A DNA stretch of 64,000 nt from an uncultured Clostridia bacterium (GTDB taxonomy: Bacteria; Bacillota; Clostridia; TANB77; CAG-508), in assembly GCA_934133005.1 (NCBI GenBank), contig CAKPAI010000001.1, positions 298,769-362,768 of the forward strand, read 5' to 3'. The notes under the pieces are model-generated. The model saw only the letters and a program-made list of their open reading frames with translations, was not told the origin of the DNA and made no database searches. Shown here in pieces: positions 1,939-35,135 of this stretch. Position 1 is the stretch's first letter, and the number at the start of each line of letters is the position of its first letter. Position numbers and translations under genes: made by a program.

Positions 1939-1979
1939 GGGCATTTTTTGAGAGGATTTTACCCAATTTTTACCCAATT
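1939..1979 (+). repeat. Arm-type direct repeat A1 (GGCATTTT..GAGG..TTTTACCCAATTTTTACCCAATT) ~100 bp inside left core
   Basis: Near-identical ~40-bp copy at ~23260-23299. Contains tandem TTTTACCCAATT x2. Position just inside core is as expected for integrase arm-binding sites. Confidence 0.55.
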
Positions 1980-6246: not shown

Positions 6247-6370
6247 AATAAAAACTCTCCTTTTTGATTATAATAATATTATATCATATCATTTCCAAAA
6301 AAGAAAGTTTTTATTTAATTGTTTTATAATTATTTCTAAAATAGAATCATATATTTTGTTATATACTAAC

Positions 6371-16032: not shown

Positions 16033-16887
16033 TTAGCATTTAGTTTTATCGCTTTTGCTAGCTTTTTCTTTTTCATTTATATCATTTTTTATGAGTGAAA
16101 TTCCATAACACATTTTGTATAAAATTTGTATGAATTCTTCTGCTAATTTCCTATTTTCAATAGCAATTTTCTCCAACAATTCTTCTCTTGTATATCTAGT
16201 TGTAATTACTATTGGTAACTCGTTTTCATATCTATTGTTAATAATTCTATACAACTTTTCTAAAGCCCATTTAGTTATTGTTTCACTCCCAAAATCATCG
16301 ATAATTAACATATCAACATTAGAATAAAGTTCCATAATTTCTGACTCTGTCGTAACAGTTTTATTAAAAGATTCTTTTATTCTATCTGTTATAGATCTAG
16401 TCCTTTCCAATAATGCAATTTTTTTATTTCTAATAATCTCATTAGCAATACTTGCTGCTAAATGAGTGTTTTCATATCCTATACTTCCATATATAATAAT
16501 TCCATCTTTAACTTTATTTTCTATACATAAATGTGTATATTTCATTAATGTTGTTATTGTTTCTTGGTTATCTTTAAATCTATCAAAATTTAAAAAATTA
16601 CAATATTTTAATTTCTTTTTTATACAACCATCCTTATATATTTTATTTATAATTTCTCTATACTTTCTTTGTTTTTCTTTTTCATTTTGCTTTGAATCAT
16701 ATTGTTTCCAAAATGCAATTGCTTCACTACAATCACACCTTTCATATTCTACCATATCGTGATTAACATTTGCATAAAGATAACTTAATCCTAATGGCTT
16801 TAATTTTTTATTGCAAAATCCACATTTTGCACCTTCATTGGTGATAACTTTAAAATTCACATTTTCTAAATCCACTTCTATTCTCAT
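16033..16887 (-). CDS. DnaC/IstB-like AAA+ helicase loader with N-terminal Zn-finger (phage replication protein)
   Basis: Walker B-like MLIIDDFGSE. LPIVITTRYTREEL (DnaC box). N-terminal CGFCNKK...CDCSE cysteine pairs. Confidence 0.65.
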   Translation of the reverse strand: MRIEVDLENVNFKVITNEGAKCGFCNKKLKPLGLSYLYANVNHDMVEYERCDCSEAIAFWKQYDSKQNEKEKQRKYREIINKIYKDGCIKKKLKYCNFLNFDRFKDNQETITTLMKYTHLCIENKVKDGIIIYGSIGYENTHLAASIANEIIRNKKIALLERTRSITDRIKESFNKTVTTESEIMELYSNVDMLIIDDFGSETITKWALEKLYRIINNRYENELPIVITTRYTREELLEKIAIENRKLAEEFIQILYKMCYGISLIKNDINEKEKASKSDKTKC

Positions 16888-17359
16888 CTCCTTCTTTAGC
16901 TAATATATTTTTAATCTTATTTTCTTCTTGTGTGTTATCCAACGTTATTGTAACGTTACTTTCTTCTTTTTCACTTTTCAACTTTTCACGATATTTTTGT
17001 TGTCTAATTCTATTTTGTTCTTTATATTTTTCATATGGCTCAATGCTTTGATACTTGTCCCAATTTTTAATTTTATATGCTTCATCTTCTACAATTAGCA
17101 TATTTAATTCTAGAAATTTTTGAATAATTTTTTCGATTTTTTTCTTAGATTTTCCCATAATCTTTGAAAAATTTTCTATTGTCATTGGTTTATTATTGCC
17201 TATTACTAATTTTCCATTTCTATTGCATTCTACAGCAATAATTAATAATTGAATCCATACTCTAAAATATGTATCTCCATCTGGTTCTCTTAACAGTATT
17301 TGAATTTTCCTATTTGAAAATATTTTTAATTCTATTTTCAACCATTGTAAACTATACAT
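16850..17359 (-). CDS. Phage replisome organizer N-terminal domain protein (DnaD-like)
   Basis: MYSLQWLKIELKIFSNRKIQILLREPDGDTYFRVWIQLLIIAVECNRNGKLV matches the conserved WIKL..IF...KI..L...P.GD...WI.LL.A..N..G.L pattern of phage_rep_org_N. Confidence 0.7.
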   Translation of the reverse strand: MYSLQWLKIELKIFSNRKIQILLREPDGDTYFRVWIQLLIIAVECNRNGKLVIGNNKPMTIENFSKIMGKSKKKIEKIIQKFLELNMLIVEDEAYKIKNWDKYQSIEPYEKYKEQNRIRQQKYREKLKSEKEESNVTITLDNTQEENKIKNILAKEGDENRSGFRKCEF

Positions 17360-17387
17360 ATCCTCCTTTCCTCGCTTTCTTTGTAAT

Positions 17388-17633
17388 CTAACTTATAGAT
17401 TTTTGTTCCATATTTTTTAAATATTCATCTAGCGCTTGTACTCTAAATAAATACTTTCCACCAACTTTAGAGCATGGTATTTGCTTTCTTCTTACTAATT
17501 GATTTATCAACCAGTAAGATACACCTAAATACTCTGCTGCTTCTTTCATTGTTAGTGTCGTCCTTTGAATTTTTGGTAATTCCATAATATCACCTCCTGT
17601 TTTTTGAAATTTAGTATTGACTTTTGTTAACAT
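17388..17633 (-). CDS. xis: Excisionase-family helix-turn-helix DNA-binding protein (Xis/MerR-like); probable true start ~17585 (MELPKIQ...)
   Basis: LTMKEAAEYLGVSYWLINQLVRRKQIPCSKVGGKYLFRVQALDEYL is a typical excisionase-family HTH. Strong RBS caggaggtgatattATG before internal Met. Confidence 0.65.
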   Translation of the reverse strand: MLTKVNTKFQKTGGDIMELPKIQRTTLTMKEAAEYLGVSYWLINQLVRRKQIPCSKVGGKYLFRVQALDEYLKNMEQKSIS

Positions 17634-17733
17634 TTGTATTATATTGTCAATAGTTAACTTTGTAAATACTTTTGGGTTTATTTTGATAGCAGGTTAACTT
17701 TAAGTGAATTTATAAACTGTTAACGGAGGAATT
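17586..17733. promoter_or_regulatory. Divergent promoter/operator region with four GTTAAC palindromes (approx. 17625, 17653, 17692, 17718) and a TTGACT -35
   Basis: Four copies of GTTAAC (three as TTGTTAAC/GGTTAAC/AGTTAAC + CTTT) within ~100 bp between divergently transcribed xis-like gene and 17734 gene. Same motif recurs twice in the int promoter. Confidence 0.5.
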
Positions 17734-18783
17734 ATGAATAAAATAAAATATGATGAACCTATAAATATCTTTGTTTCAACAAATGAAGAATTTACCCATA
17801 AGGCATTTTTATGCGGAAAAACAAAATCATCAAAACCTAAGTATTATGATTTAAAAGATGGAGATACTGGCTATTTTACTATTGATACTATAACTAACAC
17901 ACAACCACTTTGTAGCGAACTCATCTCTTTCTTAAATTGTGATTTTGATAATATTGATGAATGTTTTATGTGGTTTACTAAGTTTTTCACTTCATACATA
18001 ATATATACTGGAGAAGAAGATATAAATAAGTTTGAAATTAATAAATTTTATTCTTTTAGTAAAGTAAAAAATTTATTTAAAAAATATTATGAAGAAATAA
18101 AAAAAGACTCAAAACATGGTCAAAAACTATTATCAAAATTTGTTGATTATATATTTAACCTTGATAACATTAAAGAAATAAATGACTTTAGTACAAAAAT
18201 AAGATTTTATATTTATTATAATTCTCATTTTAAGGAACTTGATAGATTTATAAATAATCATTTTTCTATGCCACAAGGCTTTTCTTTTAGAACTATTTCT
18301 GATATTAAAGGAAATACAGAAAAAGATTTAATAAAATTCTTTAAGTCTAAATCCTCTTATGAAATTGAACCAAATTATAGCACTAGTAACGAAAACATTT
18401 ATGAAATTTTATATGTTACATTGTTTCAATTCGTACTTAATAATAAATATCTTATCAAGAAATGTAAAAATTGTGGTAAATACTTTATAACAGATAATCC
18501 ACGTATTAATTACTGTAATAATTTATACAAAGAAAAACAAACTTGTAGAGATATCGGAAACCAAATTGCTCAAAGAGTTAAGCAAGAAAATGAGATTGTT
18601 TATGGTAAATATCGTAAGATTTATGCAAAAAAAGCAATGTTAGTAAAACGTAATCCTGATATAGAAGTTTATAAGATTGATTATGAAAATTGGAAAAAAG
18701 AAGCTAAAGAATTTATGGATGCCATTAGATCTGAGGAGAAAACTTATAAAGAATTTGATGAGTGGTTGGAAGAAAACAAATAA
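17734..18783 (+). CDS. Hypothetical protein with C-terminal CxNCxxYF...YCN...TC[RK]D[IV]G zinc-finger-like domain; paralog of 27455-28774
   Basis: C-terminal KKCKNCGKYFITDNPRINYCNN...KQTCRDIGNQ aligns with ECENCHQYFIPVNRKDEIYCNR...EKTCKDVGAM of the element-2 protein. Both are transcribed divergently from an excisionase-like HTH gene. Confidence 0.55.
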   Translation: MNKIKYDEPINIFVSTNEEFTHKAFLCGKTKSSKPKYYDLKDGDTGYFTIDTITNTQPLCSELISFLNCDFDNIDECFMWFTKFFTSYIIYTGEEDINKFEINKFYSFSKVKNLFKKYYEEIKKDSKHGQKLLSKFVDYIFNLDNIKEINDFSTKIRFYIYYNSHFKELDRFINNHFSMPQGFSFRTISDIKGNTEKDLIKFFKSKSSYEIEPNYSTSNENIYEILYVTLFQFVLNNKYLIKKCKNCGKYFITDNPRINYCNNLYKEKQTCRDIGNQIAQRVKQENEIVYGKYRKIYAKKAMLVKRNPDIEVYKIDYENWKKEAKEFMDAIRSEEKTYKEFDEWLEENK

Positions 18784-18809
18784 AGGAAAAGTTTATTGCT
18801 TTTCCTTAT

Positions 18810-19712
18810 TTATATAATCATTTCATAATCTATAATATCTCTTACATAATTTTCAAGTAAATTGTCATCAGAAATATATTCGCCCCATTCACAATCACAT
18901 GATATTAATTGATGCCCACATATAGGACACATTTCCCAGTCACATCCATCTAGATGATTTTCTCCTTTTTTAGCTCCACAATCGCCACAGTACTTGCAAT
19001 CAATTGAATAATATGAATCATTCGTATTGAACTTATAATTATAAAATTTCTCTTCATCTCCATATTTTATTCTCTTATATGCATTATTATCTTTTGTAAG
19101 TATATACGAATAGTATTGATTTTCCTCAATATCCTCTTTAAACTGTTTTAATTGTTTTTTAGTAAACTCAATTCCTCTAAAAACCTCAAAATCCTTTGCA
19201 TTATTTAAAATATTCTCAATAACATATTTATATTCTTCATTTTGATATTTATGGTGAAAAATTCTATAGTGTAATTTTGTATAAAGCTCAAATAACTTAC
19301 AATATTTTCTTTTTATTTCAATCGAATTAGCATTTACTTTAAAATGAATAAAATTATTTCTTATATTACCACAAGTAATCAATAAATCAGTTTCATTTTG
19401 TGAAAACAATTTTGGCTTTAAATTTTGCAATCTTGCTATCGATTTCGAATATGTTATAGTTTTTGCTTTATCGCTAATTTTCTCATCAATATTTTCATAA
19501 ATCAAACTTTCGTTAATTCTAAACAGAGCTTCTTTTAATAGTAATTCAATTGCTTGAACTAATAATATAAATGTTGTTTTCCACTTTCTTTTTTCTTCTA
19601 TAGAATTTCTATCTTCATCATGGCTTTCATCATATCCTATCTTTTTATAATAGTATAATGTTTCTTTAATATAATCATATGAATTCTCTATTAAATTTAA
19701 TTCAAAATTCAT
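18810..19712 (-). CDS. HEPN-like (Rx4H) protein with Cys/His-rich C-terminal zinc-ribbon cluster; third gene of SLATT-SMODS operon
   Basis: Helical N-terminal region LLVQAIELLLKEALFRI ... ITCGNIRNNFIHF (R-N-x-F-x-H = HEPN Rx4-6H motif). C-terminal DCKYCGDCGAKKGENHLDGCDWEMCPICGHQLISCDCEWGE. Starts 21 nt after SMODS stop. Confidence 0.45.
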   Translation of the reverse strand: MNFELNLIENSYDYIKETLYYYKKIGYDESHDEDRNSIEEKRKWKTTFILLVQAIELLLKEALFRINESLIYENIDEKISDKAKTITYSKSIARLQNLKPKLFSQNETDLLITCGNIRNNFIHFKVNANSIEIKRKYCKLFELYTKLHYRIFHHKYQNEEYKYVIENILNNAKDFEVFRGIEFTKKQLKQFKEDIEENQYYSYILTKDNNAYKRIKYGDEEKFYNYKFNTNDSYYSIDCKYCGDCGAKKGENHLDGCDWEMCPICGHQLISCDCEWGEYISDDNLLENYVRDIIDYEMII

Positions 19713-19733
19713 CTTATATTTTCTCGCTTTCTT

Positions 19734-21032
19734 TTAAACCCTTATTGGAACATCAATTTTTCCTTTAGCTATACATACATTATTTTTTATTATATATGCT
19801 TCAACATAATGGTCACCATCAAATTTAGAATATTCAGTATGTGTATAACTATTTGTTTCTAAAATTTGTCCCCTAATATCGTTTTTTTGCTTAGCTAAAT
19901 CTCCTTCGTTTTTTACTTTCCAAAGAATTTTATCTATACCATAATTCATAATTTCTGCTTTATTTACTATGTAAAATTCTAATTTTTTATCCCTCTTTAG
20001 AAACACATGATTTGTTATCATATCCCTTAAACTAGCTGGGCGGAATCCATCTTGTGTTACTATACAATCCAATTTTAAATTTAATACTACATCAACAGGA
20101 TATTCATCTTCAATAAATTCTTCTGTATGATCATAAGTGTATTGTTCTTTTTCTTCTTCCTCATTTTGTGCTTTAGGAAATTCTTTTCCAAAAAGATTTC
20201 TTAATTCTTTATTTAAATTTTTAGAATCCTCATTTAAATCTTTAATTTTGTTATAAGCTTTTTTGGCTTTTTTTACGAATTTTCCTCCATCATCATTATA
20301 TATTTTTTGATTACTTCCTATTGCAAACCAATAACTCTGATCTTTATCTTCATTCTTTAAGAACTCAAAAATATCTTTAACTAGATTTAAATAATCTTCA
20401 TATCCACAATTTTGATATTCCTTCTTCTTTTCAGGGAAATTATTAGTTAAAGTATCAATTAATAAGCCTTTAAATTTAAAACCTTTTTTGTTTTTCCATG
20501 ATCTAAGCATATGACATATATTTGTAAAATTTCCATTTGTGTCATCATCTTTTTTCTTACATTCGTCTATTTCTGGAATTGGATTTGTAATCTTCCAGCT
20601 TCCTCCATCATTTGTATCTGGATATTTAAATGAATCATCATTTTGCTTAAATCCTGGAACTAATTCTACTGTGTATTTTGTAAAGTTTATTACTACAACT
20701 TGTCCATCACCTTTTAAGTCTGTATTAGGATATTTTTCTTTCAATACATTTTTTACTTCTTGTAATAATTGAGATTGTTTATTTCCATCATTATCATTTA
20801 TTCTATCATAAACACTCTTAGGTAGATTAAAAAGTATGTCCAAATCACTTGTATTTTTTATTGCTGTAGTTCTACCAACTGAACCTACAATATACATATT
20901 AGATTCGTCATCATCTATGTCATAATAATGTTTATTTAATTTTTTTGTAATGCCTTTTACTGTTGTTTGCATATCTTCAAAATTATCTAGTTTTATGTTG
21001 TTACAGAAATCACAAAAATCATCTTTAATCAT
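19734..21032 (-). CDS. Pol-beta-superfamily nucleotidyltransferase, SMODS/CD-NTase-like (432 aa)
   Basis: GSVGRTTAIKNTSDLDILF = GS-x11-DhDh nucleotidyltransferase active-site motif. ~230-aa C-terminal extension. ATG immediately abuts stop of upstream 2TM gene. Confidence 0.55.
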   Translation of the reverse strand: MIKDDFCDFCNNIKLDNFEDMQTTVKGITKKLNKHYYDIDDDESNMYIVGSVGRTTAIKNTSDLDILFNLPKSVYDRINDNDGNKQSQLLQEVKNVLKEKYPNTDLKGDGQVVVINFTKYTVELVPGFKQNDDSFKYPDTNDGGSWKITNPIPEIDECKKKDDDTNGNFTNICHMLRSWKNKKGFKFKGLLIDTLTNNFPEKKKEYQNCGYEDYLNLVKDIFEFLKNEDKDQSYWFAIGSNQKIYNDDGGKFVKKAKKAYNKIKDLNEDSKNLNKELRNLFGKEFPKAQNEEEEKEQYTYDHTEEFIEDEYPVDVVLNLKLDCIVTQDGFRPASLRDMITNHVFLKRDKKLEFYIVNKAEIMNYGIDKILWKVKNEGDLAKQKNDIRGQILETNSYTHTEYSKFDGDHYVEAYIIKNNVCIAKGKIDVPIRV

Positions 21033-21578
21033 TTATTTTCCCTTTCTAAGCTCTACAGGTAAATAGCTATCTATTTCTTCATCTGAAAATGTATTATCTT
21101 TTTGTATTTTTAAAGCTTTTGATGCTTTTTTTACAGCTCTATCACATGTAGATAAGCTTTTCTTGCATATATTATGATATTTTAATAATATCTCATCTCT
21201 CTTCTTAGTAGCTTCATCCAATTCTATCTTATTTAATTTTATATCTGATAATACACAAATGGTTTCATTTTTTAATTGTAAAAATTCTAATGCGCTTAAT
21301 TTATGACTATCTCTTGATTCTTTTAAATTATATGTTTTATAAAAAGTATTTATAAATAGACATATAGCTGAAAAAACAGTGGTAATTATCTTTAAAGCAA
21401 CTTCATCAATAAAAAAGCAAGTTAATAATCCTGATGTAGTAATTGCTGAAGATAATATCTTGCAAAATTCTAAAACATTAAACCAAAAAGAATTAATATC
21501 ACTATGTTTTTCATGAATTTTATGGTTCCATACTATTGATGCAAAAATTTGTCTTATCTCTGATTCTATTATATTCAT
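21033..21578 (-). CDS. Two-TM helix protein, SLATT-like candidate membrane effector (181 aa)
   Basis: Two adjacent hydrophobic helices (FNVLEFCKILSSAITTSGLLTCFFI ; ALKIITTVFSAICLFINTFY) followed by ~100-aa helical/coiled C-terminus. Directly upstream of the nucleotidyltransferase. Confidence 0.45.
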   Translation of the reverse strand: MNIIESEIRQIFASIVWNHKIHEKHSDINSFWFNVLEFCKILSSAITTSGLLTCFFIDEVALKIITTVFSAICLFINTFYKTYNLKESRDSHKLSALEFLQLKNETICVLSDIKLNKIELDEATKKRDEILLKYHNICKKSLSTCDRAVKKASKALKIQKDNTFSDEEIDSYLPVELRKGK

Positions 21579-21699
21579 ATAAATTCCTCCTATATATTTG
21601 TCGTATTATATCATATTTTCTGTAAATAATCCAGTATTTTCAAAGGATTTTAGCTTTCAAATTTTCGACATTTTTTTACATTTTATTACATTTACAAAT

Positions 21700-21823
21700 T
21701 TTTTAAGTTTATTTTTGAAATCTATTGCAATTTGTTAACTATTATTGTATAATATTTTTGTTAACATTTTAATTAAACACTCCTCCCACCCATAGGCATA
21801 CTTGAAAGGAGGTGAAATAAGTA
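21700..21823 (+). promoter_or_regulatory. Integrase promoter: TTGCAA -35 / TATAAT -10 (approx. 21726/21748) flanked by two TTGTTAAC repeats; GGAGGTG RBS
   Basis: tctattgcaatttgttaactattattgtataatatttttgttaacat, then gaaaggaggtgaaataagtaATG. Confidence 0.55.
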
Positions 21824-23017
21824 ATGGCTGGGAGTATAGAAAAAAGAGGAAAAAATAGTTACAGGCTAACAGTATCTGAAGGATTTGGCCTAAACGGAAG
21901 ACCTATGATACACAGAAAAACAGTCCACGGGACTAAAAAAGATGCAGAAGTTGAACTAGCAAAATTTGTTACTGAAGTACAAAATGGTTTAGTACTTGAT
22001 GGTAAATCTCTTAAATTTTCTGAATTTACAGAAATATGGAAAAGAGATTATGGTTCAAAAGAACTTGCTCCATCAACATATAAAAGATATTGTAGAATGT
22101 TAGAAACAAGACTTTTACCATACTTTGGACATTTTTATATTAACAAAATAAAACCAACTGACATTATGAAATTCTATGACTTACTTGAAAAGGATACTCA
22201 GTTAGTTAGGAAAAAAGGTAACAATGGTTCAAAAACAAAAAAGCCCTTATCTGGTAAAACAATTTTAGAGCATCACAGATTATTACGAGCAATGCTTCAT
22301 AAAGCAGTTTATTGGCAATTAATAGTGGCGAATCCTGCTGAACGTGTTCAACCACCTAAAGCTAGAAAACCAAAAAGAAGATCTTATGATGATGAGCAAA
22401 CTAAAATATTACTAGAAAATTTAGAACTATTATCTAGCGAAGATACTAAATACAAAGTTGCAATCATCCTTACAGTATTTACTGGTGTTCGTTTAGGCGA
22501 GTTAATGGGTCTAGAATGGCAAGATGTTGATTTTAAAAACGGAATTATCAGTATTAATCGTTCTAGTCAGTACCTAGCAGATATGGGAGTTTTCACAAAA
22601 GTTCCAAAAACAGAAAGTTCCATTAGAGAAATTGCAATACCTGAATTTATTATTTCTTTACTTGAGAAATATAAGTTATGGTATGAAGAACAAAAATCGA
22701 TTTACGGCGAATTATGGACGAATTCCGATAGGTTATTTGTACAAGCAGATGGCAAACCAATGCATCCTTCTACAATTAGCAAATGGTTTGTAAAATATGT
22801 TGGTCAAATAGGATTACCTGTAATTAATTTTCACGGATTAAGACATACAAATGCAAGTTTACTAGTTGCACAAAATATTGATATAGCAGTAATTTCTGCG
22901 AGACTAGGACATGCACAAATAAGTACTACACTTGATTTTTATGTGCATCCACTACTTTCTCACAATAGAAAAGCTGGATATGCACTAGAAAATTTGTTAT
23001 TACCAACAAGGTCTTAA
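21824..23017 (+). CDS. int: Tyrosine site-specific integrase (phage integrase family, AP2-like arm-binding N-terminal domain)
   Basis: N-term KRGKNSYRLTVSEGFGLNGRPMIHRKTVHGTKKDAEVEL (arm-binding domain). C-terminal HGLRHTNASLL...LGHAQISTTLDFYVH (R..HxxR..Y catalytic box region). Confidence 0.85.
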   Translation: MAGSIEKRGKNSYRLTVSEGFGLNGRPMIHRKTVHGTKKDAEVELAKFVTEVQNGLVLDGKSLKFSEFTEIWKRDYGSKELAPSTYKRYCRMLETRLLPYFGHFYINKIKPTDIMKFYDLLEKDTQLVRKKGNNGSKTKKPLSGKTILEHHRLLRAMLHKAVYWQLIVANPAERVQPPKARKPKRRSYDDEQTKILLENLELLSSEDTKYKVAIILTVFTGVRLGELMGLEWQDVDFKNGIISINRSSQYLADMGVFTKVPKTESSIREIAIPEFIISLLEKYKLWYEEQKSIYGELWTNSDRLFVQADGKPMHPSTISKWFVKYVGQIGLPVINFHGLRHTNASLLVAQNIDIAVISARLGHAQISTTLDFYVHPLLSHNRKAGYALENLLLPTRS

Positions 23018-23259
23018 TTTGAACTTTTTTCTAATTTTCACAAATTACAAATTTTCACGATTTTTTATAGAAGGCAATTCAAAAAAACAAGTATTACTAG
23101 GCAGATGAATTTGAAAGGCAAAGGAGCATATGTTTATATGTGACTGCGTTTCAAATGAAATCTAACGACGTAACACGCAGTTTATTTTTTGAATTTTCCC
23201 ATTGCCTTTTATAATGTATAAAAAGTATAAAATTTTAATGAATTTTTATTGATATTTAT

Positions 23260-23299
23260 GGCATTTGAGGTATTTATTTTACCCAATTTTTACCCAATT
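23260..23299 (+). repeat. Arm-type direct repeat A2 (GGCATTTGAGGTATTTATTTTACCCAATTTTTACCCAATT) ~120 bp inside middle core
   Basis: Matches 1939-1979 including tandem TTTTACCCAATT x2. Confidence 0.55.
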
Positions 23300-23392
23300 T
23301 GACATAAGAATGCCATTTTCAATCATTATTGCAACCAATTTAAAGGCATAAAAAAATACCCACAGTCATTGAAACTGTAAGTATTTATAATT

Positions 23393-23437
23393 TGGTTGCG
23401 GGGGTAAGACTCGAACTTACGACCTTCGGGTTATGAG
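23393..23437 (-). pseudogene. tRNA-Met(CAT)-like 3' fragment (anticodon loop + variable + T-arm + acceptor 3' strand + CCA); contains shared core 23421-23437
   Basis: Minus-strand read: CTCATAA-CCCGA-AGGTC-GTAAG-TTCGAGT-CTTAC-CCCCGCA-A-CCA. Perfect 5-bp T-stem, GTTCGAGTC T-loop, U33, CAT anticodon. Upstream 5' half (23438-23470) is not tRNA-like, so not an intact gene. Confidence 0.7.
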
Positions 23438-23472
23438 AAATGGAATGCATTTCTCGTTTTTTCTATTATGTT

Positions 23473-23515
23473 TTAAAGAGTGCTATTCTGTATATTTACA
23501 GCATAACACTCTTTT
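23473..23515. other. Imperfect 19-bp-arm hairpin AAAGAGTGCTATTCTGTA-tattt-TACAGCATAACACTCTTT in att-proximal non-coding region
   Basis: 11/13 + 6/6 complementary arms seen directly. T-rich on + strand after stem. Confidence 0.4.
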
Positions 23516-23548
23516 TATTATTTAATAATAATTCTATTATTTTTTAGG

Positions 23549-23576
23549 TCGGTAGGGGTATTTTTAGGGGTATACC
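23549..23576 (+). repeat. G-rich direct repeat G1 (GGTCGGTAGGGGTATTTTTAGGGGTATACC)
   Basis: Matches 38494-38519 (GGTAGGGGTATTTTACTGGGGTA). Unusually G-rich for this genome. Lies ~115 bp inside the middle core, immediately after KAP gene stop. Confidence 0.55.
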
Positions 23577-23579
23577 CTT

Positions 23580-26500
23580 TTATCCCACATTATCATTATA
23601 AAAATCTTTTTCTTCATCTATCATTTTGTTTCTAAACATTCTTGTTATTTTAAAATATTGTGCTCTTCTCATCATACTTATTTTAATTACATTACTTGTA
23701 GTAATATGATAGCAATTATATAATATTTCATTTAATTCTTTTTTATTTTCACTAAAATACATTCTTTCAAATTTTCCTAACAATTGATCTATACTTGTAA
23801 TATATTCAACATCATCAATATTTTGTAGTGCTTTTTCTATAAATTTCAAAACAGTTGCTGATTTTATATCATTTTGCTTTATAGTACACAATTCTATCAT
23901 ATTATTTAATAAAACATTATTTGAAATATTATCTAAATTATTATAATTTTGATTTATTATATCATTTAATGTATATTTTTTCATTTTTGACTCTATATTT
24001 AAACAATCTTGTATAGTTCCTTTATCACTAAGAATTCTATTTATATCATCAGTAACAGTTTCTAAATTTTTATTATCAAATGATTTTCCTATAAATTTAA
24101 ATGCTTTATCATAATTAAATCCCTCTAAATCTTTAATATTTCTATTTAGTTCATATATTTTTGATATATAACTAAAATGTTCATCTAGTGCATCAATTAC
24201 TATATTAGGACTGTTTGCTAATTTTATATTATCCACTAAAAATTGCACATATTCTGTCAAATTATCATTTTCACCGCAAAAGAATTTTCTATTATTCCTT
24301 AATATACTAAAACTATCTTCATATGTACTCGTATTTAGGTGTTCATTTAACTTTGGTATTAACAGTTTCATTATATTATCTGGTATTTCATCTTTTAAAA
24401 GCTTGAACGGTAAAATTGCTCTTTCTGGATAGTTATTATAAGCTGATATAACTGTTTTTAAGTATTCTTCCAACTTATCATCACTTATATATTCTTTTGC
24501 ATAAATAACCACCTCATATGTATAATTAAAATATGTCTTATATGATGGATATGATTTATATTTTTTTATTATCGTATCTTCTATAAATTTAGTAATATAT
24601 GATGCGTTTTCTTTTATACATAAGTATTTAAATATTTGTTTTTCTCTTGAATATTCCTTAGATGTATTAAATGCAGACAATTCTGTTAATTTTTCAAATA
24701 TAGTATCTAATATATTTTCATCCAGATATATTACTATATCTTTAAATATTTCATCATATTTTTCGTTTTTGAATATAGTTTCAGTTATATTAGTTAAGGT
24801 CTCTTCTATATATTGTATATTATCTTTGTCTTTAATCAAAATGTTTTTTATAAGTTCTTGAGCTTTCTCTTGCTCTAAGTTATCATTTAAATATTGATCT
24901 ATGTCTTCGCTATTTTCGTCGTTTATTTCGAAATTTATTTTATTTAATATATCTAAAGCATTTACTTTATCTTGACTCTTAGATGTTGCTATTATGTTAG
25001 CTATTTCTGTACCTTTATTTACATCTATATTGTTGCATAATTCCTTTGTAAATAGTCTATTTAGCCTTTCAAGTAATTTAGTATATTTAAATAGTACTAT
25101 TATGTCATCTATGGAATCTAATACTTTATCAACTTTGTCTAGTTCTTTGAAATACTCTTCATATTTAGATAGAATCTTCTCTGAAAAGTCGTTACTTGTA
25201 TCCATATATTTACATAGTGTATTAAATAGTTGATTCCCAAAATATTCTACAAAAATGGTCTGTTCTTTAATATTTACTTTTTCAATAAATATATTAATTT
25301 TTTCTGTATTATTTTCTATTACTTTACAAATAAACTCTTTAAAATTGCCCTTTATATTACTTTCTAAGTTATCTTTTTCTTCTAAATATTTATTTATAAT
25401 TTCTATGTTTTTATCCAAATCTGTATTTTCTTTTGCACAATCTATATATTTATCTAAAAGTTTATTTATGTATTCTTTTTTATTTGCTAATTTTAATATA
25501 GAAAACACATTGTTTATATTTAGTTCTAAAATATTTATTTCTTCTTTAGTATAATCTAAATTATATATTTTTTCTGATAAGTTTTCAGCAATAATAGTCT
25601 TATTCTCTTCTTTTATAACATCAAAAGAATTTATTATTGTTATTATTCCATTTAATAAATCTGTATCTTCTGCATTATCTAGCTCATACATAATTGAATC
25701 AATCATATTGTCATTTTCTTCAATCATTTTTCTGACTGTTTTTGTATTTTTGCTCTCCATAGCTGAAACAATACGTCTATTATTTTCATCACCTGTTTTT
25801 ATACTTATTTCATCTTGTATTAAATACATAAATGGTGCTATATTATTGACTTGATATTTTTCAGTTTGCTTCAAAAAATTTATTAACGGTTCATATTCTG
25901 ATTTTATTTCAGCCTTAATATTTTCTTCATTACCTTTCTGTTCAAAAAATATTTGTAAATCTTCATCTATTTCGTTTATTTTTTTGCTTGTTTCATGTAA
26001 GTCAACAATTCTTTTTATATAATTGAAGTTTCTAAATAACACATCATAAAAATCATTAAAATCAGCTTGTAAAACTGATATCTTTGCTAATTGCAAATCA
26101 GATTCTTCACTATCTAATAAATTTTTTTCAATTTTTCCATTTTTGCTTCTATTGGTCATTAATATTTTATTGTTAACAAATGTATTTATAAGTTTTTTTA
26201 CTTGTCTAGGTGTAGTTACATTTTTGTGTATTAATACCTTTCTAATTACACTTTCCAGTCTATTCATTGTGCAATACTCTTCTATAAAATCCGGTATATT
26301 CTCTTGTACTAAATTTACTGCATATTCTTTTATATCAAAATCTAATAATGGTGGTATATATATTTTATATTGAAACAACTTGTCTAATATTAGCTCACTT
26401 TCTACCATTTGATGATTACCATCTAATTTTATTGTTCTGTTTTGGTCTAATGCCTTTTTTAAAATTGAATCATCAAAAGGAACTATAAAAATACAATTCT

Positions 26501-27308
26501 CAAATCCCACAAACGCTTTTATTGCATCTAATGCTTCTACTATTTTGTCAATGCTTAACCTATCTAAATCATCTATTACTGTTACAATTTTTTTCTTTTT
26601 GTTCTGTCCTATTTTTTTATTTATTGTATCTTCTAAAAATGTTTCATAATCATCTGTTGTTTCTATTGGTATTTTAACTTCAATTTTTTTATCGTATCTT
26701 TTTATAAACTCTGATAGAGTAACTGTAACAAATGATAATATTAAAGGAAATATCAATACTTTTCCAATATTTTTGCAATATCCAAGAAACCATTCTCTCC
26801 AAAATCCATCACCAAATCCATTAAGTTGTACAGCTTTATATATTATAAATGCTACAATACTTACTAATGATATTCCAAAACTTATTTTACAAAATGTTTT
26901 CATCATATTTTTAAATCTTGAATCATCTTCTGTTTCATCTTGATTTATAATATCTCTATATATTTTTTTAATTGTTTCAAAAGTTTTGACTTTTTCACCA
27001 CTAATTCCTTGCCATAATTGTTTTAGAAACACATTTTTTAATGATTCTTTTTCGTATTTCCAAGCATTTATCTCTTGGACAATATAATTGTCAGAGTCTT
27101 TTCTATATTTATCTAATAGTAAATTTACTATTGAAGATTTTCCTATCCCCCATTTTCCAATTAAAGCTATATTATATGGCGGATTTGTATTTTCAATAAT
27201 TAACCTTAAATTATCTACTACGTCTTTTTGATTGAATCTATCGTCATCTATACTTATTAATTCACTATCTTTTAAAAAATATTTTTTCTCTTTTTTCTTT
27301 TTATCCAT
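23580..27308 (-). CDS. KAP-family P-loop NTPase, 1242 aa, with ~850-aa low-complexity C-terminal extension
   Basis: Walker A NIALIGKWGIGKSS. Two TM helices inserted after Walker A (ISFGISLVSIVAFIIYKAV ; VLIFPLILSFVTVTLSEFI). Walker B VTVIDDLDR. Insertion of TM helices into the NTPase core is the KAP hallmark. Confidence 0.75.
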   Translation of the reverse strand: MDKKKKEKKYFLKDSELISIDDDRFNQKDVVDNLRLIIENTNPPYNIALIGKWGIGKSSIVNLLLDKYRKDSDNYIVQEINAWKYEKESLKNVFLKQLWQGISGEKVKTFETIKKIYRDIINQDETEDDSRFKNMMKTFCKISFGISLVSIVAFIIYKAVQLNGFGDGFWREWFLGYCKNIGKVLIFPLILSFVTVTLSEFIKRYDKKIEVKIPIETTDDYETFLEDTINKKIGQNKKKKIVTVIDDLDRLSIDKIVEALDAIKAFVGFENCIFIVPFDDSILKKALDQNRTIKLDGNHQMVESELILDKLFQYKIYIPPLLDFDIKEYAVNLVQENIPDFIEEYCTMNRLESVIRKVLIHKNVTTPRQVKKLINTFVNNKILMTNRSKNGKIEKNLLDSEESDLQLAKISVLQADFNDFYDVLFRNFNYIKRIVDLHETSKKINEIDEDLQIFFEQKGNEENIKAEIKSEYEPLINFLKQTEKYQVNNIAPFMYLIQDEISIKTGDENNRRIVSAMESKNTKTVRKMIEENDNMIDSIMYELDNAEDTDLLNGIITIINSFDVIKEENKTIIAENLSEKIYNLDYTKEEINILELNINNVFSILKLANKKEYINKLLDKYIDCAKENTDLDKNIEIINKYLEEKDNLESNIKGNFKEFICKVIENNTEKINIFIEKVNIKEQTIFVEYFGNQLFNTLCKYMDTSNDFSEKILSKYEEYFKELDKVDKVLDSIDDIIVLFKYTKLLERLNRLFTKELCNNIDVNKGTEIANIIATSKSQDKVNALDILNKINFEINDENSEDIDQYLNDNLEQEKAQELIKNILIKDKDNIQYIEETLTNITETIFKNEKYDEIFKDIVIYLDENILDTIFEKLTELSAFNTSKEYSREKQIFKYLCIKENASYITKFIEDTIIKKYKSYPSYKTYFNYTYEVVIYAKEYISDDKLEEYLKTVISAYNNYPERAILPFKLLKDEIPDNIMKLLIPKLNEHLNTSTYEDSFSILRNNRKFFCGENDNLTEYVQFLVDNIKLANSPNIVIDALDEHFSYISKIYELNRNIKDLEGFNYDKAFKFIGKSFDNKNLETVTDDINRILSDKGTIQDCLNIESKMKKYTLNDIINQNYNNLDNISNNVLLNNMIELCTIKQNDIKSATVLKFIEKALQNIDDVEYITSIDQLLGKFERMYFSENKKELNEILYNCYHITTSNVIKISMMRRAQYFKITRMFRNKMIDEEKDFYNDNVG

Positions 27309-27454
27309 TATTACACATTCCCTTCAATAGTTTTATATTTTCATTTTTTGTCTTTTGTGTAATATTCTCATTTTTATATTAGCAATTCTATCATATTTTT
27401 CCAATTTTGTATATATTTTCCACAAATTTGCCAGACGTCTGGCAAATTCAATTT

Positions 27455-28774
27455 TCATTTTTTAATTTTTCTATTTTTACCAACTTTTTTTCTATTATCA
27501 AATACTTCTATCCTTTGTAACATATCATTTACCTTAATTTTGCCTTCAGCACATTCTTGTTTTAATTCTAATGCCATATAATTCCATTGATTAAACTCAC
27601 TTTTTGAAATTATTTTCCTATCAGCTTTATATTTATACCTTTTATATACTCTCCAATATTCTTTTTCTCCTGGTATATCTCCTGCTTTTTCTTTATGTCT
27701 ATTCATTGCTCCAACATCTTTGCAAGTTTTTTCTGTTCCTTTTATTGGTCGATTACAATATATTTCATCTTTTCTATTTACTGGTATAAAATATTGATGA
27801 CAATTTTCGCATTCTTTAAACTCTATATCACTGCTTACAAATTTTAATAATTCAAATCGAATTAAATCGTTCATATCCTTAATTTCATATAATTCCTTTA
27901 TTTCTGTGCTATCTCTTTTAACCACATCAATCAAATCTTTACTTGTTTTATATTCAGCTGTTTCATCTAAATTAGGAACTGCCCTATAAAATACATTAAA
28001 TGGTTTGTTTATATAAAAATTATCTTGTTTATTTTCAATAACTCTTGTTTGATCTAGAACATATAGTTTTTGTGCATTTGACATTCCTTCTAATTGACTA
28101 TTGGTTATTTTTTTATAAATATAATCTATCTCTTCTTTTAAAATGGCTCTCTTTCTCTTTATATCTGCTATAATTTCTTTTCTTACATAATGATAAAATT
28201 TTATATATCTTTCCTTTTTCTTTTCGTCAATTACTGATGCCAATTTTCTAATTCCTATATATCTATCTGTTTTTAATTTTTTATCTTTATTTGCATTTTC
28301 ATGTTCTACATAAATACAATTTTTTACAGTAGTATCTGGCATTCTCTTTTCTAATATATCCATTCTTTCTACTCCACTTGTTGGAGTTTCAGACATAATT
28401 TCATATAGCATTTGTGTATAAAAGTGCATATATACACAACTATTATCTATTTGTGCCATTAAATCTTGTAACATTTCTATGTAATCAAACATTGATATTT
28501 TAGTATTCGAAGCTTTTTGAGTTATTAAATCAATAACTTGTGTATATGCCATATTTATTTCATCAATATCTAAATACATAAAATTTAATAAATGTATTCC
28601 TAATGGAAATTCCATTCTCTGTACTCCTAAAAAATCTTCATTATCTGGATAAATACATATATGATTATTTTCGTTCAAAGTCGCATATAAAGCCATTTTA
28701 TCACCCCTATATTTTTGGAATATCGATATTTTGCATTTTTTAGAAAATCGATTTCTACGATACATATTATACAA
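27455..28774 (-). CDS. Hypothetical protein with C-terminal Zn-finger-like domain, paralog of 17734-18783 (likely start at MALYATL ~28696)
   Basis: C-terminal ECENCHQYFIPVNRKDEIYCNRPIKGTEKTCKDVGAM. Divergent from HTH gene at 28959. Confidence 0.55.
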   Translation of the reverse strand: MYNMYRRNRFSKKCKISIFQKYRGDKMALYATLNENNHICIYPDNEDFLGVQRMEFPLGIHLLNFMYLDIDEINMAYTQVIDLITQKASNTKISMFDYIEMLQDLMAQIDNSCVYMHFYTQMLYEIMSETPTSGVERMDILEKRMPDTTVKNCIYVEHENANKDKKLKTDRYIGIRKLASVIDEKKKERYIKFYHYVRKEIIADIKRKRAILKEEIDYIYKKITNSQLEGMSNAQKLYVLDQTRVIENKQDNFYINKPFNVFYRAVPNLDETAEYKTSKDLIDVVKRDSTEIKELYEIKDMNDLIRFELLKFVSSDIEFKECENCHQYFIPVNRKDEIYCNRPIKGTEKTCKDVGAMNRHKEKAGDIPGEKEYWRVYKRYKYKADRKIISKSEFNQWNYMALELKQECAEGKIKVNDMLQRIEVFDNRKKVGKNRKIKK

Positions 28775-28958
28775 AACTATTGTAATTTTTTCAATATCGT
28801 TTTATTATTTCCATCAGAAGCAGATAAAAATTTTATCTTCGCTTATGTACATTGAAAACTAAATAGTCCAGATATACACAAATAAAGAAACTTCTACCTG
28901 GCTAACGTGATGTAAAGGGGTAGCTCTCCTAGATGGAGGGAATGGAAACAGAACCATT

Positions 28959-29234
28959 ATGGTATTAAATACATATATAGGGACGTTAAACAAGAAAAAA
29001 AAATTTTTGAGGAAAGGAGAACAAATACCTATGAGAAGTACATTTAAAACAAACGAAGAATTACCTGCAACATTGTCAGCAACAGATATTAGTAAATACT
29101 TAGGAATTTCGAAAGCTAATTCATATCAATTAATGAATCGTTCAGATTTTCCTACACTTAAACTTGGTAAACGAAAATTAGTACCAAAAGATAAATTTTT
29201 AATATGGGTAAATAACAATACAAATGTTATTTAG
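28959..29234 (+). CDS. Excisionase-family HTH DNA-binding protein (probable true start ~29031, MRSTFK...)
   Basis: LSATDISKYLGISKANSYQLMNRSDFPTLKLGKRKLVPKDKFLIWV, typical excisionase/HTH_17-like. RBS gaggaaaggagaacaaatacctATG before internal Met. Confidence 0.65.
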   Translation: MVLNTYIGTLNKKKKFLRKGEQIPMRSTFKTNEELPATLSATDISKYLGISKANSYQLMNRSDFPTLKLGKRKLVPKDKFLIWVNNNTNVI

Positions 29235-29246
29235 AAGGAGTAACTT

Positions 29247-31172
29247 ATGGAAGAAAATATGAATAAAAAAAATAATATTCAGGTAAATGCTTTAAATGTT
29301 GGCACAGAGAAAGCATCTTCTAAATATTATTCTTATCAAAATGATTCTACTGATATTATACAAGCAAATACAAATAAATTCAATAAAAATCAAGAAAATT
29401 CTTTAAGTTCTCTATTTGAAAATACACCTTATGAAATAATTGATGGTTCTTTATTTAAGGTTACAAATAAAAAAGGAAATAAAGTTTATCAAAAATTATC
29501 AAACTTTGTTCCTTATTTAAAAAATGAAACAATTATTGATGATGGTGTAGATGTAAAAAGATATTTGAGCATGGAAGGTAAACATGCTAATGGCAAAAAT
29601 CTGCCTTCCATTAGAATATCTGCAAATGATTTTAACAATATGAATTGGATAACAAAAAATTGGGGCTTACATTGTAATATTGAAACAGGACAAACTGTAA
29701 AAGATTGTATTAGACATGCTATTCAATGTACTGCAACTAATATAAAAATTGAACATATCTATTGTCATACTGGTTGGAGAAATATTAATAACAAATTAGT
29801 ATTTCTATGTAATAGTTTATATTTAGATAAAAATATTGAAACAAATGTTGAACTAGAAGGAAAATTATCACGTTATTGCTTAACAGATGTTACAGAAAGA
29901 AATATCGATGAAGATTTAAAATGTATAAGGAAATTACTAGATACTGAATTTATACCACATAAAATCATATTACCTTTAATTGCTTTAGCATTTCTATCTC
30001 CATTAAATCATTTTCTAGAAATAGCTGATTGTGAACCAAAATTAGTATTATTTTTAATTGGAAAAACTGGAGCTAAGAAAAGCACTCTTGCTTCTCTTAT
30101 ATTATCATTCTTTGGAGATTTTACTAATACTGATTTACCTATATCTTTTAGAGATACTGCTAATAGTATTATTGCACAATCATTTATCTTAAAAGATGTT
30201 TTAACTGTAATTGATGACTACCACCCTTCTACTAAATTAGATGAATTATCTATGAATAAAACAGCACAAGTCATTATGAGATCTTATGGCGATAGAATAG
30301 GAAAAAATAGATTAAATTGTGATAGTACATTAAAAGTATCCAAACCACCTAGAGGAAATGCCATCATTACTGGAGAATCAACACCAGATATTTCCGAAAG
30401 CGGTACTGCTAGATATATCAGTATTGAATTACAGCCAAACGACATTGATGTTTCGAAATTAACCAAATTACAAGAATTATCAAGAAATGGATCTTTTAAA
30501 TCTGTTATGAGTTTTTATATTAGATGGATTTATCAATATGTGAATGGTGTTTATACAGAAAAAGAATATGCAAATAAATTAAGAGAAGATTTTATAAATA
30601 ATAGAAAAATCCTAATTACAGAATTAACTAATAGAAATATAACTTTTCATCCTAGAATACCCGAAGCATTATCTTGGCTCTTTATAGGTTTTGAGAAATT
30701 TTTAAACCTTATGAATAATGCAAATGTTCTTACAAATGATGATTTACAATTTTTAGTTTCCGAATTTGCAGATATTTTAATAAATCTAGCAATATCTCAA
30801 TCTAAAACTGTTACTGAAGATAATCCTAGTATGAAGTTTGTTACTAAATTAAATTCATTGTTAGAAAGCAAAATTGCAAGAGTTCAAGATATAAGAACTT
30901 ATCAATATGCAGGTGGAAATGGCTTTATTGGTTATGAAGATGATATGTACTATTATTTAATATCAAGCATATCTCATAAATTAGTAAAAAAACTTTGTGA
31001 TGAACAAGGAGAATTGTTCTCAGTAAGTGAGAGAACTCTATTAAAACACTTAGATGAAGATGGATTTATAGAAACTTCAAAAGATAGTAGAACAAAATTA
31101 CTACGAGTTGGTGGTAGTCCACAAAGATTTATATGGTTAAAAAAAGATAAATTTAGGAGTATTATACAGTAA
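29247..31172 (+). CDS. Primase/helicase-type replication protein (SF3/D5-like NTPase; DUF927 / P4-primase-C-like)
   Basis: Walker A LFLIGKTGAKKSTLASL. Walker B LTVIDDYHPS. 641 aa. Located between xis-like gene and mob genes as in SaPI/IME-type elements. Confidence 0.55.
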   Translation: MEENMNKKNNIQVNALNVGTEKASSKYYSYQNDSTDIIQANTNKFNKNQENSLSSLFENTPYEIIDGSLFKVTNKKGNKVYQKLSNFVPYLKNETIIDDGVDVKRYLSMEGKHANGKNLPSIRISANDFNNMNWITKNWGLHCNIETGQTVKDCIRHAIQCTATNIKIEHIYCHTGWRNINNKLVFLCNSLYLDKNIETNVELEGKLSRYCLTDVTERNIDEDLKCIRKLLDTEFIPHKIILPLIALAFLSPLNHFLEIADCEPKLVLFLIGKTGAKKSTLASLILSFFGDFTNTDLPISFRDTANSIIAQSFILKDVLTVIDDYHPSTKLDELSMNKTAQVIMRSYGDRIGKNRLNCDSTLKVSKPPRGNAIITGESTPDISESGTARYISIELQPNDIDVSKLTKLQELSRNGSFKSVMSFYIRWIYQYVNGVYTEKEYANKLREDFINNRKILITELTNRNITFHPRIPEALSWLFIGFEKFLNLMNNANVLTNDDLQFLVSEFADILINLAISQSKTVTEDNPSMKFVTKLNSLLESKIARVQDIRTYQYAGGNGFIGYEDDMYYYLISSISHKLVKKLCDEQGELFSVSERTLLKHLDEDGFIETSKDSRTKLLRVGGSPQRFIWLKKDKFRSIIQ

Positions 31173-31174
31173 TA

Positions 31175-31370
31175 TTTTCTGTTACAACTGTTACATTTTT
31201 CTAAATTGCATATGGTTGTAAGAAAATATTAGTAACAATTATCTAAAATTATCTGATACAAAAATGAAACAGAATTTGTTACAACTTGTATCAGATATGT
31301 AACAAATAACGAAAGTTTATAATCAACTTATATAACTATATTCTACAGTGTTGTAACAGATGTAACAGTA
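31175..31370. promoter_or_regulatory. Candidate oriT: six copies of TGTTACA/TGTAACA in direct and inverted arrangement upstream of mobC
   Basis: tgttacaactgttaca (~31179), ttgttacaacttgtatcagatatgtaacaa (~31275, inverted pair), tgttgtaacagatgtaacag (~31348). Confidence 0.45.
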
Positions 31371-31444
31371 TTTTTATATATAATACTTCACTTCTTGCTA
31401 AATTTAAGCTATTCTTTGTAGTTTTTTATAGGCAAGATTCCTAA

Positions 31445-31921
31445 TTGTATAGACATACAATTAAATGGTTGCGTTATTGCTTTAGCAATTACGAACCATT
31501 ATATGTGGCTTTGCCACTAGATTTTACACCCAAAATTCACTTTGGGTGTTTTAATTTTGGGAGAACCCAAACCCCTTTTACAAATTTTAGAGAAAGGAAC
31601 TTAATATATATGAGAAAAAATAATAAACAAATTAATTTTAGAGTTAGTGAAAAAGATTATAACTATATAAAAAGGCAATCTGAAAAAGCTAATATAACTT
31701 TAACTGACTATTTAAAATATTCAGCACTTAACAAGAACATATATGTAATTGATGGATTAGATGATGCTTCAAGAGAACTTGCTAAAATTGGAAATAACTT
31801 AAATCAGCTAACTAGACTATGTCATCAAGGTGTTATTACTTGTTTAGATTTAAGTGAGATTAGAGAGCAGGTGAAACATATATGGCAGTTATTAAATTTA
31901 CTAACTCCAAATCAACTTTAA
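31445..31921 (+). CDS. mobC: MobC-family relaxosome accessory protein (probable true start ~31610, MRKNNKQINFRVSEKD...)
   Basis: FRVSEKDYNYIKRQSEKANITLTDYLKYSAL ... LAKIGNNLNQLTRLCH matches conserved MobC (ribbon-helix-helix start and IGNNLNQ box). RBS agaaaggaac. Confidence 0.7.
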   Translation: MYRHTIKWLRYCFSNYEPLYVALPLDFTPKIHFGCFNFGRTQTPFTNFRERNLIYMRKNNKQINFRVSEKDYNYIKRQSEKANITLTDYLKYSALNKNIYVIDGLDDASRELAKIGNNLNQLTRLCHQGVITCLDLSEIREQVKHIWQLLNLLTPNQL

Positions 31922-33132: not shown

Positions 33133-33150
33133 AAAATATTTTTAACAATA

Positions 33151-33372
33151 TTGACTTTTGACTGTCATAATGTTATTATATTTATGGCAGTCAAAAAGGA
33201 GGTGGATATGACTGAGAAAAAGCTAGGTCGTCCAACTGATAATCCTAAGAATACTAAATTAACTGTTCGTGTAGATGCGGAAACATTAGAAATATTAGAA
33301 AAATATTGTAAGAAAGAAAATATATCTAAAATGGAAGGTATTCGTAGAGGAATTAGAAAATTGGACAAATAA
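33151..33372 (+). CDS. Small ribbon-helix-helix/CopG-like DNA-binding protein (start likely ~33208, MTEKKLGRPT...)
   Basis: KKLGRPTDNPKNTKLTVRVDAETLEILEKYCKKENISKMEGIRRGIRKL. RBS aaaaaggaggtggatATG. Confidence 0.5.
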   Translation: MTFDCHNVIIFMAVKKEVDMTEKKLGRPTDNPKNTKLTVRVDAETLEILEKYCKKENISKMEGIRRGIRKLDK

Positions 33373-33383
33373 AAAAGGAAATA

Positions 33384-35109: not shown

Positions 35110-35135
35110 GCTATTTTGTGTAAAATACTATAATA

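Follow-up and report, generated by a model that had tools for sequence, protein, structure and literature searches.

In a 64,000-nucleotide stretch of the genome of an uncultured Clostridia bacterium (contig CAKPAI010000001.1; hereafter the window), which has a G+C content of about 26% and holds two tandem integrative elements, A and B, each element carries a gene of the Pfam family DUF6076 (PF19553) that is transcribed away from an operon headed by a small helix-turn-helix (HTH) gene. We propose, and give it about an even chance of being right, that DUF6076 is an autoregulated repressor of the element switch, and one that does not belong to the HTH class. The proposal comes from the comparison of sequences, namely the homology of the two proteins, the synteny of their loci, the pattern and conservation of short boxes in the promoters concerned, and the unequal divergence of the two parts of the protein. 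To our knowledge, the silencing switch of integrative elements is known for few models (phage CI, ICEBs1 ImmR and SaPI Stl), all of them HTH repressors.

The two open reading frames (ORFs) that an initial annotation of the window had singled out, of 349 and 439 amino acids (aa), were found at the positions it gave (Table 1). Their products, here called proteins A and B, are 27% identical over 161 aa (BLASTP, E = 1e-9), in an alignment that ends in a cysteine block reading CKNCGKYFI in A and CENCHQYFI in B, followed by YCN and then by TCRDIG or TCKDVG respectively. Both exceed the PF19553 gathering cut-off of 23.5 bits (48.1 bits for protein A and 72 bits for protein B), and all 27 aligned relatives match the same family. 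The C-terminal block that the annotation had seen in both proteins is therefore significant by pairwise alignment as well as by Pfam profile search and, because both proteins exceed the gathering score, it is a real and already catalogued domain rather than a chance resemblance. The term 'paralogous', used at that time, is too loose, as A and B are distant homologues on two separate elements with no local duplication. The second protein is most likely 413 aa rather than 439 aa long, because there is an ATG with a ribosome-binding site at 28696, and because the cluster representative P0001 (976 member sequences), 97% identical to protein B, also has 413 aa.

An exhaustive profile search at E <= 1e-3 returned 3,217 clusters (50% identity), of which 1,960 have E <= 1e-10. 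Among the best 150 members, full-length proteins are mostly about 280–460 aa and the remainder are shorter fragments; judged by length, none of these 150 is long enough to contain a fused extra domain. No NCBIfam, PHROGs or PADLOC model matches protein A or B, DUF6076 is without mention in the literature searched, and the Pfam entry gives no function. The domain itself is thus not new, since the Pfam family is already catalogued, and the earlier suggestion of a 'new type' of regulator holds for the functional assignment only; what is new is the synteny, the operator architecture, the co-occurrence across element types and the functional hypothesis.

We scanned one genome per species for related loci, which gave 70 loci, nearly all labelled as uncultured gut Clostridia and a few as Bacilli or Bacillota. 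DUF6076 is counter-transcribed from an HTH_17-led operon in about 60 of them. In essentially all loci with enough flanking sequence, tblastn revealed the same backbone, p207-DnaC-RepOrg-HTH_17 (minus strand) and, pointing the other way, DUF6076 (plus strand), which is followed by 0 to 4.5 kb of variable sequence and an integrase gene (int), also on the plus strand. The divergence from the HTH_17 gene noted in the initial annotation was confirmed for both elements, this gene heading a replication operon in A and a replication/mobilisation operon in B. On contigs with relatives that are 35–57% identical (L001, L003 and L006), the backbone is kept, while the cargo on both sides is different and mostly of defence type. 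DUF6076 lies directly 5' of int in several distant lineages (L065, L070, L077, L078, L082, L088 and L098), and the ancestral unit therefore looks like a small HTH gene plus replication genes, divergent from a DUF6076-int pair. A natural recombinant, L072, combines a main-type HTH (88%) and integrase (92%) with a foreign module made up of the intergenic region and DUF6076, and some DUF6076 genes accompany serine recombinases. At L078, L080, L088 and L089, which are distant elements, the first divergent gene is not HTH_17 but codes for a small HTH protein of about 60 aa with the motif QW[QE]VA[ND]A[VI]G[VI]SEMT, which matched no Pfam family above threshold.

As the reading in the initial annotation demands, homologues lie overwhelmingly on integrative elements, but the family is not restricted to them, because copies are also found in a Ruminococcus phage and a Clostridioides difficile megaplasmid. 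In the phage (L085; PV036450.1, Ruminococcus phage NatCom_38182, Caudoviricetes) DUF6076 is at 5377–6426 with no integrase within the 6-kb flanks, and its neighbours are, on one side, a gene whose 627-aa product weakly matches Peptidase_M78 (ImmA/IrrE-like) and, on the other, a gene resembling those of extracytoplasmic function (ECF) sigma factors. The 300-kb C. difficile megaplasmid (L086; NC_017177.1) has DUF6076 at 4164–5093 and 7749–8354, each copy followed by a convergent DUF4116 gene.

The intergenic region between HTH_17 and DUF6076 of element A holds a cluster of the palindrome GTTAAC. This hexamer has 11 sites in the window, four of them in the 148 bp of this region and two within 90 bp upstream of the integrase gene intA; the remaining 5 sites in the 64 kb predict about 0.012 per 148 bp, and the Poisson probability of four or more is then about 1e-9. 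A promoter scan placed one box in the spacer of the plus-strand promoter (TTGACT-17-TATATT, 17617–17645) and one in the spacer of the minus-strand promoter (TTTACA-17-TATAAT, 17666–17638). Taking these promoters together with that of intA, boxes occupy spacers as well as positions immediately after −10 hexamers. The fourth intergenic box touches the Shine–Dalgarno (SD) sequence of DUF6076, and nearly all A-type loci share such an SD-adjacent box. The intA promoter is linked to the divergent region by a repeat, D15. The offsets of the four boxes from the HTH start (+42, +69, +109 and +135) are fixed in about 60 loci, most related loci have the box pair of the int promoter at −89/−63 relative to the int ATG, and the boxes and promoter hexamers stand out as the conserved islands when 58 unique intergenic sequences are aligned.

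Similar boxes accompany DUF6076 far from the A-type loci. We defined a class-1 box as GTTAAC, GATAAC or GTTATC and counted such boxes in the 230 nt upstream of DUF6076; independent lineages have 2–4, compared with 0.06–0.27 expected. The 48 boxes from 15 lineages give the consensus TTG[T/A]TAACAA, and they recur near −57 and −20 relative to the start codon. The loci that carry class-1 boxes fall into three groups by the gene beside DUF6076 (Table 1). In a DUF6076 clade with HTH_17 partners (L090–L097, IMG/VR contigs), TGTCTAT/TATAGAC boxes replace the TAAC boxes. This second class, (A)TGTCTAT / TATAGAC-AGTCTATA (ATGTCTAC in L090), lies in the approximately 160 nt upstream of the gene, with one copy close to the SD. 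Because one class of box occurs with different partners, and HTH_17 occurs with different classes of box, the box tracks DUF6076 and not its partner. We infer that DUF6076 recognizes the boxes, the main argument being that its gene is their constant companion. The regulatory region of element B lacks GTTAAC and that of element A lacks ATCGAT, and these different boxes would fit two orthogonal regulators side by side. Among element-B relatives only the ATATCGATAT box (28720–28729) is invariant, the other two boxes being variable.

The part of the protein that might contact these boxes is the C-terminal domain, which is conserved, while the N-terminal part diverges rapidly. Between related loci the former is 75–96% identical and the latter 35–79%; in loci whose integrase is 84–98% and whose HTH protein is 82–91% identical to those of the window, the C-terminal domain is 75–86% identical and residues 1–235 are only 35–39% identical. 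The residues that are invariant in the 27-sequence alignment, C244, C247, F251, Y260, C261, C271, G275 and Y293 in protein-A numbering, include a four-cysteine motif, C-x2-C-x13-C-x9-C. Alignment and charge analysis gave the core C-x2-C ... YC ... C-x3-G followed by a basic helical tail; among family members the segment from five residues before CxxC to the C-terminus (about 111 aa) has a net charge of +6 to +18, against −18 to +5 for the N-terminal remainder. An AlphaFold2 (AF2) model of the full protein A (predicted local distance difference test, pLDDT, 82; predicted template modelling score, pTM, 0.73) has an N-terminal β-sheet with helices, then a three-stranded zinc-ribbon-like element with the four cysteines, and three long helices; residues 221–349 modelled alone, as a helix, the three-stranded ribbon and the three long helices, reached a pLDDT of 89.8.

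We found no HTH in DUF6076. No HTH family matched proteins A and B at E <= 1 or any of the 27 members at E <= 10, and the PF12728-type HTH that the neighbouring genes at 17388–17585 and 29031–29234 do match is absent from DUF6076. No solved structure resembles the C-terminal domain, DUF6076 has no recognisable DNA-binding fold, and a profile search of Protein Data Bank (PDB) sequences gave only an insignificant zinc-ribbon match (3irb, E = 2.3). The 27-sequence alignment has no conserved residues of catalytic type. The proteins also differ from the ABATE plus CGNR zinc-finger proteins (PF07336/PF11706; Jann_2411, PDB 3h0n), as DUF6076 has neither the Pfam match nor the CGNR motif nor the C-x4-C-x15-C-x3-C treble clef of zf-CGNR.

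Two family members, P0005 and P0098, are natural chimeras: up to the zinc knuckle they belong to one subfamily, whereas their C-terminal helices are those of another, and the joint lies precisely in the conserved TCKD[IV]G motif. Their structure points to recombination there, with the reservation that P0005 might have arisen in assembly; its contig has only 49 nt upstream and does not translate to the query.

From the observations on boxes and domains we infer DNA binding by DUF6076, repression rather than activation, and sensing. In the mechanism that we propose, the C-terminal C4 zinc ribbon and the three long helices would bind short boxes, TTG[T/A]TAACAA in element A and probably ATATCGATAT in element B. 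The sites bound would be the spacer of the DUF6076 promoter, the spacer of the HTH_17/replication promoter, the int promoter and the SD of DUF6076 itself. Binding would silence the genes for replication, excision and mobilisation, and would also cap the level of DUF6076. The fast-evolving N-terminal part would serve in oligomerisation and/or signal sensing, with the signal relieving repression, and the distinct boxes of A and B would prevent cross-regulation between the neighbouring elements. The initial annotation had placed the two genes where Stl/ImmR-like master repressors sit. The position is borne out by the counter-transcription, by the adjacency to int in minimal elements and by boxes on both divergent promoters and the int promoter; the proteins, however, are not Stl/ImmR-like in sequence or fold.

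Several observations weigh against this proposal. HTH_17 or another small HTH protein is encoded next to DUF6076 in almost every integrative locus and could bind the boxes, and, as the phage was examined over about 12 kb, an HTH protein may be encoded elsewhere in it. The loci are related, so that common ancestry accounts for part of the conservation. Support for the element-B boxes is weak; over more than 30 loci almost nothing changes in the intergenic region there, and these boxes therefore cannot be footprinted by comparison. No recognisable boxes were found at L009, at L082 or at the C. difficile megaplasmid copies, and the box classes cannot be told apart cleanly by any residue of the C-terminal domain. 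An R-N/H-P motif was considered as the determinant of box class and rejected, as the correlation is imperfect and L087 is an exception.

The neighbouring small HTH protein, HTH_17 in A and B, might itself bind the boxes as a Cro-, Xis- or AlpA-type regulator, with DUF6076 not binding DNA itself but acting as a co-regulator, as an anti-repressor target or as a sensor through protein contacts. HTH_17 is an established DNA-binding fold with weak similarity to Tn916 Xis and AlpA, its gene adjoins DUF6076 in nearly all integrative loci, DUF6076 has no recognisable fold of this kind, and its fast-evolving N-terminal part would suit a sensor. Nevertheless, we think this explanation unlikely, given that class-1 boxes occur in three partner situations, including phage loci without a divergent HTH gene beside DUF6076, that HTH_17 partners occur with two classes of box, and that the surroundings of the att sites, to which an excisionase should bind, contain no GTTAAC. 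The most conserved box, moreover, abuts the SD of DUF6076, which suggests autoregulation. That same placement could be read in another way, with DUF6076 as an RNA-binding autoregulator whose zinc ribbon and basic helices bind the box beside the SD in its own mRNA (and in the int leader) and so control translation rather than transcription. RNA binding is common among zinc ribbons with basic tails, the last box abuts the SD in almost every lineage, and the predicted 5' untranslated region contains two to three boxes. But boxes are also found in the −35/−10 spacers of three promoters and, in phage, upstream of the −35 hexamer, positions outside the transcript; GTTAAC is palindromic as DNA; and the single leader that was folded, that of element B, showed no significant RNA structure and no Rfam match. 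We regard an RNA target as improbable.

DUF6076 might also have no regulatory role and be an accessory factor for replication, partition or recombination, or serve in exclusion or defence, and be linked to the backbone by chance, in which case the boxes would belong to another factor. Its adjacency to int in minimal elements, its place within the early/replication gene block of phage, and its rapid evolution beside defence cargo are all compatible with this. Such a role would nevertheless leave the boxes on the DUF6076 promoter and SD unexplained, the elements already encode replication proteins of their own, the position of DUF6076 is constant while the cargo changes, and the protein has neither conserved residues of catalytic type nor a PADLOC or PHROG match; we consider it quite unlikely.

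The arrangement has parallels in two known systems. In ICEBs1, the genes for Int, ImmR and ImmA are read in the direction opposite to transcription from Pxis, and ImmR has six binding sites, distributed over both promoter regions (PMC8960796). DUF6076 lies opposite an HTH_17-led operon as immR of this Bacillus subtilis element lies opposite xis, forms one block with int in minimal elements, and likewise has multiple short sites in both divergent promoter regions; as candidate operators, these would imply that the mobilisation side is repressed and DUF6076 autoregulated. The difference is in the protein, as ImmR is an XRE/HTH_3 repressor that is inactivated by the ImmA protease, whereas DUF6076 has a C4 zinc ribbon and a basic helical domain in place of an HTH. 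In elements A and B and in the three fully annotated A-type loci (L001, L003 and L006), no gene matched a protease family. DUF6076 also resembles Stl of the staphylococcal pathogenicity islands (SaPIs) and other phage-inducible chromosomal islands (PICIs), in that it lies between int and a divergent replication operon. Stl proteins are HTH repressors whose divergent parts diversify to sense different phage proteins, and DUF6076 similarly combines a conserved, putatively DNA-binding part with a highly divergent remainder. SaPI Stl is released by binding a specific helper-phage protein, and the variable N-terminal part of DUF6076 would be compatible with sensing. Elements A and B have defence cargo or a relaxase, and packaging genes were not seen in them. 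When both were compared with PICIs and phage satellites, which also have genes for interference with phage packaging or of terS type, an integrase, divergent regulators and a replication module were present; the proteins scanned gave no match to a packaging or capsid family, but several ORFs are without a Pfam match.

Gut Clostridia contain very many small integrative islands that shuttle cyclic-oligonucleotide-based anti-phage signalling systems (CBASS), restriction–modification (RM), abortive infection (Abi) and KAP NTPase genes. One could go further and suppose that DUF6076 represents a new class of zinc-ribbon, non-HTH master repressors in thousands of Firmicutes mobile elements, including integrative defence islands, mobilisable elements, phages and megaplasmids. 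Its hypervariable N-terminal part would then sense an invading phage or element, making defence islands inducible, and pairs of box and regulator would set element-specific immunity. We hold this extended version to be doubtful. If the proposed function is correct, a single assignment would annotate approximately 3,200 protein clusters at 50% identity, the defined operator TTG[T/A]TAACAA and its promoter architecture would be directly testable, and a new DNA-binding domain would be added to the repressors of mobile elements. The conserved backbone with its two cargo slots is a practical handle for mining new defence genes.

Table 1. Features of elements A and B in the window, and loci with class-1 boxes. 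Positions are those of the window.
Feature	Position	Strand	Basis or remarks
DUF6076 gene of element A	17734..18783	+	349-aa ORF; PF19553 E = 1.4e-12
DUF6076 gene of element B	27455..28696	-	413 aa; PF19553 E = 6.5e-20; mechanical ORF to 28774
Basic C-terminal domain of protein A, residues 236–349	18439..18780	+	Invariant columns, identity, charge, domain model
Four Cys ligands of protein A, C244, C247, C261, C271	18463-18546	+	Invariant columns
C-terminal Zn-finger/basic domain of protein B	27458..27835	-	BLASTP alignment to protein A; family alignments
Divergent regulatory region of element A	17586..17733		Four GTTAAC boxes at 17626, 17653, 17693, 17719; face-to-face promoters
intA promoter, TTGCAA-17-TATAAT	21725..21765	+	GTTAAC box in spacer (21734), another just downstream of −10 (21760)
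Divergent regulatory region of element B	28697..29030		Promoter 28794-28766 (-); palindrome ATATCGATAT 28720-28729; ATCGAT/ATCGT boxes 28747, 28795
HTH_17 (excisionase/AlpA-like) gene of element A	17388..17585	-	PF12728 E = 2.3e-12; weak Tn916-Xis; heads replication operon
HTH_17 gene heading replication/mobilisation operon of element B	29031..29234	+	PF12728 E = 4.4e-6; weak AlpA; 67 aa in L012, L084
Replication module of element A	16033..17359	-	Phage_rep_org_N 16850-17359; DnaC/IstB-like 16033-16887; Pfam; syntenic in ~60 loci
Variable cargo slot between DUF6076 and int	18810..21578	-	PDC-S64-like, CBASS cyclase, two-transmembrane (2TM) effector; Pfam and PADLOC
Tyrosine integrase (intA) of element A	21824..23017	+	Phage_integrase, Phage_int_SAM_3
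Left attachment (att) repeat of element A	1956..1979	+	24-nt perfect direct repeat, ATTTTACCCAATTTTTACCCAATT
Right att repeat of element A	23276..23299	+	Same 24-nt repeat
Backbone of element B	29247..35109	+	641-aa putative Rep (no Pfam), NikA/MobC, MobA/VirD2-type relaxase, 140-aa ORF, tyrosine integrase; same order in L012
Class-1 box loci, neighbour HTH_17			A-type, L087, L098
Class-1 box loci, neighbour unrelated small HTH of ~60 aa			L078, L080, L088, L089
Class-1 box loci without divergent gene			Ruminococcus phage group L085, L101, L102, L104

Element A spans about 21.3 kb between its att repeats, and both of its cargo regions are rich in genes of defence type. Its left cargo comprises a superfamily 1 (SF1)-type helicase, HTH_3-Fic, Mrr (Mrr_cat), a type IIG restriction–modification enzyme and a methyltransferase, after which come the 207-aa protein, the DnaC/IstB-like protein, Phage_rep_org_N and HTH_17 on the minus strand, then DUF6076 on the plus strand, the right cargo and the tyrosine integrase. 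The HTH gene starts at 17585 (65 aa), its counterparts in homologous loci having 65–66 aa. The 207-aa protein (15095–15718, minus strand) belongs to no Pfam family; its gene is a backbone gene downstream of the DnaC-like gene, and the protein is 66–92% identical in most related loci. Cargo near DUF6076 genes matches PADLOC models of CBASS, RM and PifA/QatA-like type. The slot between DUF6076 and int (L001, L003, L006 and L014–L075) differs in content and in length, from 0 to 4.5 kb, in almost every locus, and several of its genes, which match neither Pfam nor PADLOC, are candidates for unknown defence genes.

Around intA there are direct repeats of AATTTTCAC at about 23033–23057, in the stretch from the intA stop to the right att repeat, and AAATTTTCGAC / TTTACA repeats of similar sequence at 21658–21705, upstream of the int promoter; both sets are candidate arm-type sites for the integrase or the excisionase. 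Between the two elements, at 23377–23437 on the minus strand, lies the 3' half of a tRNA with a CAT anticodon loop, the T arm and the acceptor end. We take it for a probable att remnant; neither Rfam nor ARAGORN reports it, and the window contains no complete tRNA. Megablast of 17000–35200 found no match in plasmid or phage collections.

Element B lies at 23400–35135, beside a 2-thiouracil desulfurase/NUDIX gene cluster, and a search for an att repeat found none. Its order is a KAP NTPase cargo gene (1242 aa), DUF6076 on the minus strand, the divergent HTH_17 gene on the plus strand and the replication/mobilisation backbone. The HTH gene starts at 29031 (67 aa), as in homologous loci. With MobC and a relaxase present and no conjugation genes seen, B is a mobilisable integrative element. 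In other metagenomes (L012 and L084) it occupies the same chromosomal site, with AbiEii-type cargo in place of the KAP NTPase. Its intergenic region also contains a perfect palindrome, AGATAAAA-T-TTTTATCT (28822–28838), apart from the ATCGAT boxes, which could be a site for the HTH_17 protein or for another factor.

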